Shown here piece after piece: positions 8,535 to 8,609 of a stretch of DNA of 64,000 bases (position 1 is its first letter; each line of letters begins with the position of its first letter). Under the pieces are notes generated by a model that was not told where the DNA came from, ran no database searches, and was given only the letters and a program-made list of their open reading frames with translations. Position numbers and translations under genes: made by a program. The stretch is from Escherichia coli (lineage in GTDB: Bacteria > Pseudomonadota > Gammaproteobacteria > Enterobacterales > Enterobacteriaceae), in the NCBI RefSeq assembly GCF_030013595.1, contig NZ_CP122768.1, one strand, 5' to 3'.

Positions 8535-8609
8535 TGGAGCGGGTAGCGGGAATCGAACCCGCATCATCAGCTTGGAAGGCTGAGGTAATAGCCATTATAC
8601 GATACCCGC
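8535..8609 (-). tRNA. tRNA-Gly (anticodon UCC), prophage-borne variant of host glyT
   Basis: Reverse complement folds as a 75-nt cloverleaf with 7-bp acceptor stem, T-arm GCGGG/TTCGATT/CCCGC, anticodon loop CUUCCAA and 3' CCA. Differs from recalled host glyT by a compensatory acceptor pair change (C6:G to U6:A). Confidence 0.8.

Follow-up and report, generated by a model that had tools for sequence, protein, structure and literature searches.

That tRNA genes occur between the late antiterminator gene Q and the genes for lysis or toxins is textbook knowledge for lambdoid phages. In the 933W-type Stx phages, the ileZ-argN-argO cluster occupies such a position, upstream of stx and between Q and the late and toxin genes, and reads A-ending codons that are rare in the host. 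The lambdoid phages SerU-LTIIb (KU052038), phi467 (LN997803), JLK-2012 and vB_EcoS-683R6 carry a tRNA-Thr/tRNA-Gly pair at the same site as the locus described here, after Q and before the lysis genes. The pair of phi467 differs in that it lies downstream of toxin genes rather than of Q and retains the host C6:G67 allele of tRNA-Gly; the tRNA loci of this phage have been noted previously (PMC5189129). The virulent phage T2 (PV958097) encodes a glyT-like tRNA-Gly(UCC) within a cluster of 8 tRNA genes. Finally, certain phage tRNAs resist nucleases: this has been described for tRNA-Thr(UGU) against P2-OLD (PMC12445682) and, as cited in the same article, for the tRNA-Lys of phage T5 against PARIS.

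The window, by which we mean the whole 64-kb stretch of Escherichia coli DNA that was analyzed, contains a gene of this kind. ARAGORN calls a tRNA-Gly(tcc) at positions 8535-8609 on the minus strand and the Rfam tRNA model RF00005 gives the same interval 65.6 bits (E=5e-12), the gathering score being 29. The sequence read on the minus strand is GCGGGTATCGTATAATGGCTATTACCTCAGCCTTCCAAGCTGATGATGCGGGTTCGATTCCCGCTACCCGCTCCA and its anticodon is U34 C35 C36. The glyT gene of the strain itself lies outside the window and that of E. coli K-12 (NC_000913.3 4175673-4175747) served as host reference. Compared directly, the two genes are identical over 73/75 positions. The two mismatches, C>T at linear position 6 and G>A at linear position 66, face each other as a base pair; with a variable loop of 4 nt, linear position 66 corresponds to canonical position 67 and the pair is 6:67. 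The anticodon arm, the D arm, the T arm, U73 and acceptor pairs 1-5 and 7 are unchanged. An initial annotation of the locus had described a complete 75-nt tRNA with an encoded CCA, matching host tRNA-Gly2 save for a paired C6:G to U6:A replacement. Both prediction tools and the comparison with K-12 uphold that description, to which ARAGORN adds the strand, previously left out. Two open reading frames overlapping the gene (8365..8751 on the minus strand and 8462..8770 on the plus strand) were treated as spurious since RefSeq annotates no CDS there. We regard tRNA-Gly(UCC) as a real and intact gene of a lambda-like prophage, and a largely ordinary one.

Set beside the systems outlined above, the locus shows both familiar and distinctive traits. 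Host glyT resides in the thrU-tyrU-glyT-thrT-tufB operon, whereas the window tRNA has U:A at 6:67 and dissimilar flanks, and it is located in a prophage late region with a promoter-like site of its own. The first copy of SerU-LTIIb is 100% identical to the window tRNA and that of JLK-2012 carries two further changes. In contrast with the lambdoid Thr/Gly phages, the window displays an upstream tRNA relic and an AraC-family insertion upstream. As to the ileZ-argN-argO cluster, relatives of the window module likewise carry Ile2-like(CAU) and Arg(UCU) tRNAs, whereas the window has only Gly(UCC), for GGA and GGG codons. The T2 tRNA-Gly shares U6:A67 with the window tRNA, yet their identity is only ~87% and further changes affect all the stems (A5:U68 and pairs of the anticodon and T stems).

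The left 25 kb of the window constitute the prophage, most of which is encoded on the minus strand (Table 1). Q, the tRNA and the first holin gene are all on this strand, which is that of the late transcript. The proposal of a prophage-borne tRNA between Q and the lysis genes is substantiated by the phrog_79 assignment of Q, by the holins and M15 endolysin and by a 99.5% identical locus for which RefSeq shows the same annotation from Q to lysis. It deserves one qualification: three accessory genes, two on the plus strand and one of the AraC family, intervene between Q and the tRNA. A terminator-like hairpin upstream of the AraC gene marks a recombination joint. Strain Ecol_224 harbors a prophage with the same backbone but a different, tRNA-free segment between Q and lysis, and this segment can thus be considered an exchangeable module. 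The full 2.2 kb context occurs in only 22/5426 complete E. coli genomes, mostly of porcine ETEC or O139 strains, and the prophage of relatives is inserted between prfC and yjjG. SymR and leuQPV, both ordinary host features, locate the window to the E. coli region prfC-leuQPV-symE.

Table 1. Features of the window and their coordinates.
Feature	Position	Strand	Basis and remarks
Terminase and portal	1646-5465		Prophage
Lysis cassette	7039..8076	-	Holin 8076..7684, holin 7694..7419, M15 endolysin 7422..7039; phrog_198, phrog_217, phrog_465; RefSeq annotation of a relative
Third terminator-like site	8102..8117	-	Terminator scan; a short distance upstream of the holin start; without variation in 4 aligned relatives
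Second terminator-like site	8214..8231	-	Terminator scan
Intrinsic terminator-like hairpin with U-run, strongest of three	8253..8272	-	Terminator scan; conserved in relatives
Conserved unannotated 84-nt RNA hairpin	8331..8414	- (tRNA strand)	Downstream of the tRNA, ahead of the terminators that precede the holins
Variable trailer, tRNA to conserved hairpin	8415..8534	-	Diversity 0.157 across 84 modules
tRNA-Gly(UCC) gene, U6:A67 allele	8535..8609	-	75 nt, CCA encoded; ARAGORN, Rfam RF00005, comparison with K-12 glyT
Leader with decayed tRNA relic	8610..8723	-	Where relatives carry a thrU-type tRNA; 3' part aligns with the T arm and the acceptor's 3' strand of that tRNA
Sigma-70 promoter-like site TTGATA-16 nt-TAGTAT	8724..8751	-	Consensus scan; after an AT-rich tract, ~115 nt upstream of the tRNA
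AraC-family (YdeO/GadX-like) accessory gene	9027..9878	-	Between Q and tRNA; phrog_1450; RefSeq 'AraC family transcriptional regulator'; partial NCBIfam hits that stay below the cut-off
Terminator-like hairpin, mosaic joint	9899..9911	-	Homologous to the terminator directly after Q in relatives whose Q type differs
Two AT-rich accessory genes (DUF6731-type, hypothetical)	10275..11435	+	phrog_7651, phrog_8552; RefSeq names; GC 0.37 and 0.32
Late antiterminator Q gene	11459..11836	-	phrog_79, E=4e-45
Replication and immunity genes	Beyond Q, before AbiU/AIPR gene		Prophage
AbiU / AIPR-family abortive-infection gene	22026-23819	-	PADLOC E=3e-111; AT-rich, GGA-rich; adjoins the integrase
Integrase	23983-25206		Prophage
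leuQPV, three host tRNA-Leu(CAG) genes	28445-28767	+	Ordinary host features
SymR antitoxin RNA	54917-54993	-	Rfam 93.5 bits; ordinary host feature

Two other elements of the prophage were observed in passing. An accessory gene beside the lysis module (6374-6967, plus strand) encodes a PmrG-like LPS core heptose(II)-phosphate phosphatase, above the NCBIfam cut-off, and 6/8 of its Gly codons are GGA. At 17145-17333 on the minus strand, Rfam models for C4 antisense RNA (83.6 bits) and for isrK (67 bits) match side by side, inside or beside the open reading frame of a Rha-family regulator (16542-17693); this pair looks like an antisense immunity element of the P1/Gifsy type.

Complete E. coli genome records that contain the exact 75-mer number 268, and their PGAP annotation gives tRNA-Gly. 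The 75-mer is also present in 111 IMG/VR viral contigs and in the GenBank phage SerU-LTIIb; a search of single representative genomes of ~100,000 species returned 0 matches. Together with copies at 97-99% identity in JLK-2012, phi467 and 683R6, these viral occurrences agree with the earlier suggestion of a common site for lambdoid phage tRNAs. In the relatives, tRNA-Gly was found as the last tRNA gene of an array in 115/115 oriented instances, and 101/115 of these arrays comprise 2-4 tRNAs. Thr(UGU)-Gly pairs account for 74 of them and the quadruplet Ile2-like(CAU)-Lys(UUU)-Thr-Gly for 12, while others include Arg(UCU) or Lys(UUU). The prophage site in the window holds a single tRNA gene and no tandem array.

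The place of the upstream tRNA is taken in the window, and in only seven related loci, by a decayed relic. It could be taken for a cryptic tRNA, a reading ruled out by ARAGORN and by Rfam (E<=10), neither of which scores it as a tRNA in the window or in the better-preserved copy of locus L030. This intermediate form (L030:2790-2900) folds into two hairpins, the second of which resembles an acceptor/T-arm minihelix, and a stem of the relic shows a compensatory difference between the window (GGTCT/AGACC) and L030 (GGTCC/GGACC). The tRNA-Gly of the window is the lone survivor of a widespread and already annotated lambdoid array. A literature search found no published work on the function of this tRNA.

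The array itself derives from the thrU-tyrU-glyT-thrT operon of the host. This origin is indicated by the neighboring tRNA-Thr of relatives, located 3 nt upstream of tRNA-Gly and usually 100% identical to K-12 thrU, and by the Stx2f phage phi467, in which thrU and glyT, again 3 nt apart, are both kept host-identical. A recent capture with host flanks is ruled out, for 100 nt on each side of the window tRNA are devoid of similarity to the glyT operon. Neither could a donor species be designated: among the matches listed by a degenerate acceptor-stem scan, none in a credible chromosome was closer than 73/75. A 423-bp contig (L183) in a Corallococcus exercitus assembly carries a tRNA identical to that of the window at 74/75 positions; since this contig is tiny and has a coverage of 0.67x, it is most likely enterobacterial or phage contamination and not a myxobacterial gene. 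In an assembly labeled DH5alpha (NZ_CP026085.1, locus L002), which is among the 268 records, a tRNA-Thr/tRNA-Gly(U6:A67) pair at L002:5922-6075 precedes the same holin cassette, and the hairpin and terminators found downstream of the window tRNA recur there as they do in SerU-LTIIb.

Anticodons also vary within the lambdoid arrays. On a scaffold identical to thrU at 74/76 positions, UUU replaces UGU in 7 loci and UCU does so in 1, and a second array scaffold alternates between UCU and UUU; example loci for this switching are the region of L016:3479-3554 and L003:1122-1197. Switching of this kind, with the scaffold unchanged, resembles a natural recruitment of tRNA genes through a point change at position 35.

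The variation of tRNA-Gly in the phage population was assessed on modules gathered through a conserved 20-mer located ~180 nt downstream, independently of the tRNA sequence, in order to avoid search bias. Among the 86 modules with a tRNA-Gly, 65 possess the exact window allele (76%) and U6:A67 is found in 79, 14 of which add one further change to it; U6:A67 is the dominant allele of the phage pool. Only 2 modules are host-identical, 3 have C6 opposite A67 and 2 combine U6.G67 with a compensatory 49:65 change, so that both single-step intermediates between the host and phage pairs are present in the pool. Across 84 modules, the nucleotide diversity amounts to 0.009 in the tRNA-Gly, 0.157 in the spacer immediately downstream and 0.42 further upstream (-200 to -80). 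With a tRNA ~17x less variable than the adjoining spacer, tRNA-Gly is under purifying selection among the phages, and gene conversion from host glyT does not explain this conservation since the conserved allele differs from that of the host. The view that the gene looks functional rather than decayed is consistent with these figures.

The initial annotation had further envisaged that the 6:67 change modifies aminoacylation identity. The identity set of E. coli GlyRS consists of U73, G1:C72, C2:G71, G3:C70, C35 and C36. By sequence, this set is complete in the window tRNA, which differs from glyT at positions 6 and 67 only. In addition, a degenerate acceptor-stem scan detected the same GCGGGUA/UACCCGC stem in the chromosomal tRNA-Gly(UCC) of many other bacteria, with an identity of <=73/75 to the window tRNA among the matches listed; these include many Gammaproteobacteria, Clostridia and Patescibacteria. 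With the identity elements intact and the stem in use elsewhere, a change of identity finds no support. Most likely, the 6:67 change would be neutral, two transitions that leave the structure intact and serve as a marker of the phage lineage.

Codon usage was counted on the non-overlapping long ORFs of the window, and the prophage was compared with the flanking host part. GGA reaches 13.0 per 1000 codons in the prophage versus 8.3 in the host part, a 1.56-fold enrichment ranking 10 of 61 codons, and its share of Gly codons is 0.21 versus 0.12 in the flanking host genes (Fisher p=2.6e-4). The excess is modest and unevenly distributed. It is concentrated in the AT-rich accessory and lysogen-side genes (PmrG-like phosphatase, AraC, two small accessory genes, cI-like repressor, AbiU and integrase), with a share of 0.32 (p=2e-7 versus host); late genes (0.19) and early genes (0.16) barely exceed the host (p=0.04). 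The most enriched codons, AGG, AGA and ATA, are those read by the Arg(UCU) and Ile2-like tRNAs of the relatives' arrays. In E. coli, glyT is known to be the only GGA reader. The median number of glyT-like places per E. coli genome is one, and the best match to the window tRNA falls in the 95-99% identity band in 5154/5424 E. coli records, as expected of a host-type allele with 2 mismatches. Given that most genomes hold one such gene, the prophage copy doubles the gene dosage of the GGA reader. As in lambdoid arrays, the anticodon of the window tRNA matches an enriched codon, although the effect is modest. The suggested role as supplementary GGA decoder for AT-rich phage genes would fit this codon usage, the more so when the comparison with the host is restricted to the accessory genes of the prophage.

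A putative sigma-70 promoter precedes the leader of the tRNA. Its match to the consensus is 9/12, and shuffled sequence gives as many promoter hits in the region; L030, a diverged relative, retains the two hexamers, and in relatives with full arrays TTGAAA-16-TAATAT stands about as far from the first tRNA. On the other side, the stretch leading from the tRNA to the holin start contains three terminator-like hairpins.

Between the tRNA and these terminators lies a conserved, strand-specific hairpin of 84 nt with covariation in its favor. Its minimum free energy is -37.4 kcal/mol on the minus strand (z -6.2) and -19.5 on the plus strand (z -2.6). Over 25 distinct sequences, its 34 pairs, rich in G.U, are formed in 98.6% of the cells, versus only 33-56% in control structures whose partners were slid by 1-3 columns; 17 pairs vary on one side via G.U and 3 pairs vary in a compensatory manner. 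The hairpin occurs in 388/5426 E. coli genomes and, among the matches listed, no RNA feature is annotated there. It matches no Rfam family at the gathering or E<=10 thresholds, and a known RNA family was discarded on these grounds. A small ORF was likewise rejected upon inspection by eye, as the length of the TTG-started ORF varies among relatives and the substitutions preserve pairing, not coding. An RNase III site, a stabilizer of the transcript end or a small RNA are all possibilities for this element.

Taken together, we favor with moderate confidence a functional elongator tRNA-Gly(UCC), the last intact member of its array, which would add capacity for decoding the rare codon GGA and in which the 6:67 pair would be neutral. 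Transcription would start from the promoter-like site of the gene in the lysogen and would proceed by Q-modified read-through during lytic growth, after which RNase P and 3' processing would release the tRNA. The host GlyRS would presumably charge it, all identity elements being intact. As a second gene copy of the sole, otherwise single-copy GGA decoder, the tRNA would provide extra GGA/GGG capacity, to the benefit mainly of the AT-rich accessory, immunity and defense genes, whose GGA usage is ~2.6x that of the flanking host genes. The same observations that speak against codon supply would suit a neutral passenger, captured from the host operon and moved with the lysis module by recombination, with no measurable current benefit: the codon bias is modest, the same-backbone prophage of Ecol_224 does without the module, the neighboring tRNA has decayed in the window lineage and other prophages bear mismatched or probably damaging alleles (C6.A67, C56U). 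We nevertheless judge such a passenger fairly unlikely. The 17-fold lower diversity of the tRNA relative to the adjacent spacer, in 84 modules whose flanks have strongly diverged, is hard to reconcile with neutrality, and so is the persistence in 76% of modules of a non-host allele, beyond the reach of gene conversion from glyT. tRNA genes being common integration sites, and the region being a mosaic joint, the gene might alternatively be a target, or its leftover, for another mobile element. Such an attachment or recombination role is nearly excluded since no further copy of the tRNA's 3' half, complete or partial, turns up in the window, even with <=3 mismatches allowed; besides, the gene is full length, and its position and partner tRNA are the same in >100 phage contigs.

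Another role to consider is that of a counter-defense tRNA, which would replace or buffer a host tRNA-Gly(UCC) inactivated by a tRNA-targeting defense or toxin and whose A:U pair at 6:67 would lower recognition by toxins that depend on the lower, G/C-rich part of the acceptor stem. According to recent articles, tRNA-directed toxins favor tRNA-Gly and tRNA-Thr. Most enterobacterial GNAT toxins, namely AtaT2, TacT1-3 and GmvT, acetylate mainly Gly-tRNA-Gly (PMC9177977). The AtaT toxin of EHEC requires G/C pairs at acceptor bp 4-6 and acts less well on tRNA-Gln, in which two G-C pairs stand alongside one U-A pair there (PMC7595197); these stem-requirement data concern tRNAfMet variants and natural substrates only. 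Base pair 6 of the window tRNA, U:A versus C:G in the host, falls inside this region, and the overlap would be the only hint that the change is adaptive. Among the phage tRNA-Gly that most resemble glyT, all stem changes affect acceptor bp 5 or 6, as U6:A67 in the window and U5:A68 in A7_1 and YeP1. However, U6:A67 belongs to an ordinary acceptor stem in other bacteria, two transitions are compatible with drift under AT bias, and some phages have the host-identical glyT allele at the same site. The toxSAS FaRel2 selects tRNA-Gly as well as tRNA-Thr via acceptor pairs 1, 2, 4 and 5 (PMC11559606), all unchanged from glyT in the window tRNA, and pair 6:67 lies outside them. P2-OLD is the effector behind P2-lambda interference; it favors thrU and cleaves tRNAs that combine A37 with paired CNG motifs at 28-30 and 40-42 (PMC12445682). 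This motif is present in tRNA-Gly(UCC), and in this sense the window tRNA resembles the nuclease-resistant phage tRNAs, which also copy a host isoacceptor bearing a known nuclease motif. In the resistant tRNAs, however, the nuclease determinant within the anticodon arm departs from the host version, whereas the window tRNA has C28A29G30, C40U41G42, A37 and a 5-bp anticodon stem exactly as host glyT; it therefore fits the OLD motif, is no escape variant and finds no support for membership in that group. The partner tRNA-Thr is usually 100% thrU, free of escape changes, and none of the articles consulted demonstrates that tRNA-Gly(UCC) is cleaved or spared. Counter-defense strikes us as quite unlikely. 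Still less probable, in our opinion, would be a non-neutral A:U at 6:67 that, like changes at 5:68, weakens recognition by toxSAS or by GNAT toxins of the AtaT/TacT type, the Thr-Gly pair then forming a counter-defense module instead of, or alongside, codon supply.

The glyT-like tRNA-Gly of phage A7_1 (Vequintavirinae; L155:301-375) and of Yersinia phage YeP1 (L156:1501-1575) contain U5:A68, which breaks the purine5-pyrimidine68 determinant of FaRel2 (PMC11559606) and is a possible candidate for an escape allele. In the tRNA-Thr(UGU) of JLK-2012 (L157:2422-2497) and of one viral contig, the anticodon stem reads TCATC rather than TCAGT on its 3' strand; one CNG motif is lost and the stem is shortened, the two features reported to make a phage tRNA-Thr resistant to P2-OLD (PMC12445682).

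The tRNA gene of the window adds little that is new by itself, since identical copies already bear a tRNA-Gly annotation in a GenBank phage record as well as in hundreds of E. coli genomes, and the conserved hairpin may be the more novel object of the region. The value of the locus is comparative. It exemplifies a host-derived thrU-glyT module spreading among lambdoid phages, with a phage-specific allele held under purifying selection and a demand for GGA concentrated in the accessory genes of the lysogen side. As this allele differs from the host gene by a single base pair, it would permit a cheap test of codon supply versus escape from tRNA-targeting toxins in temperate phages.
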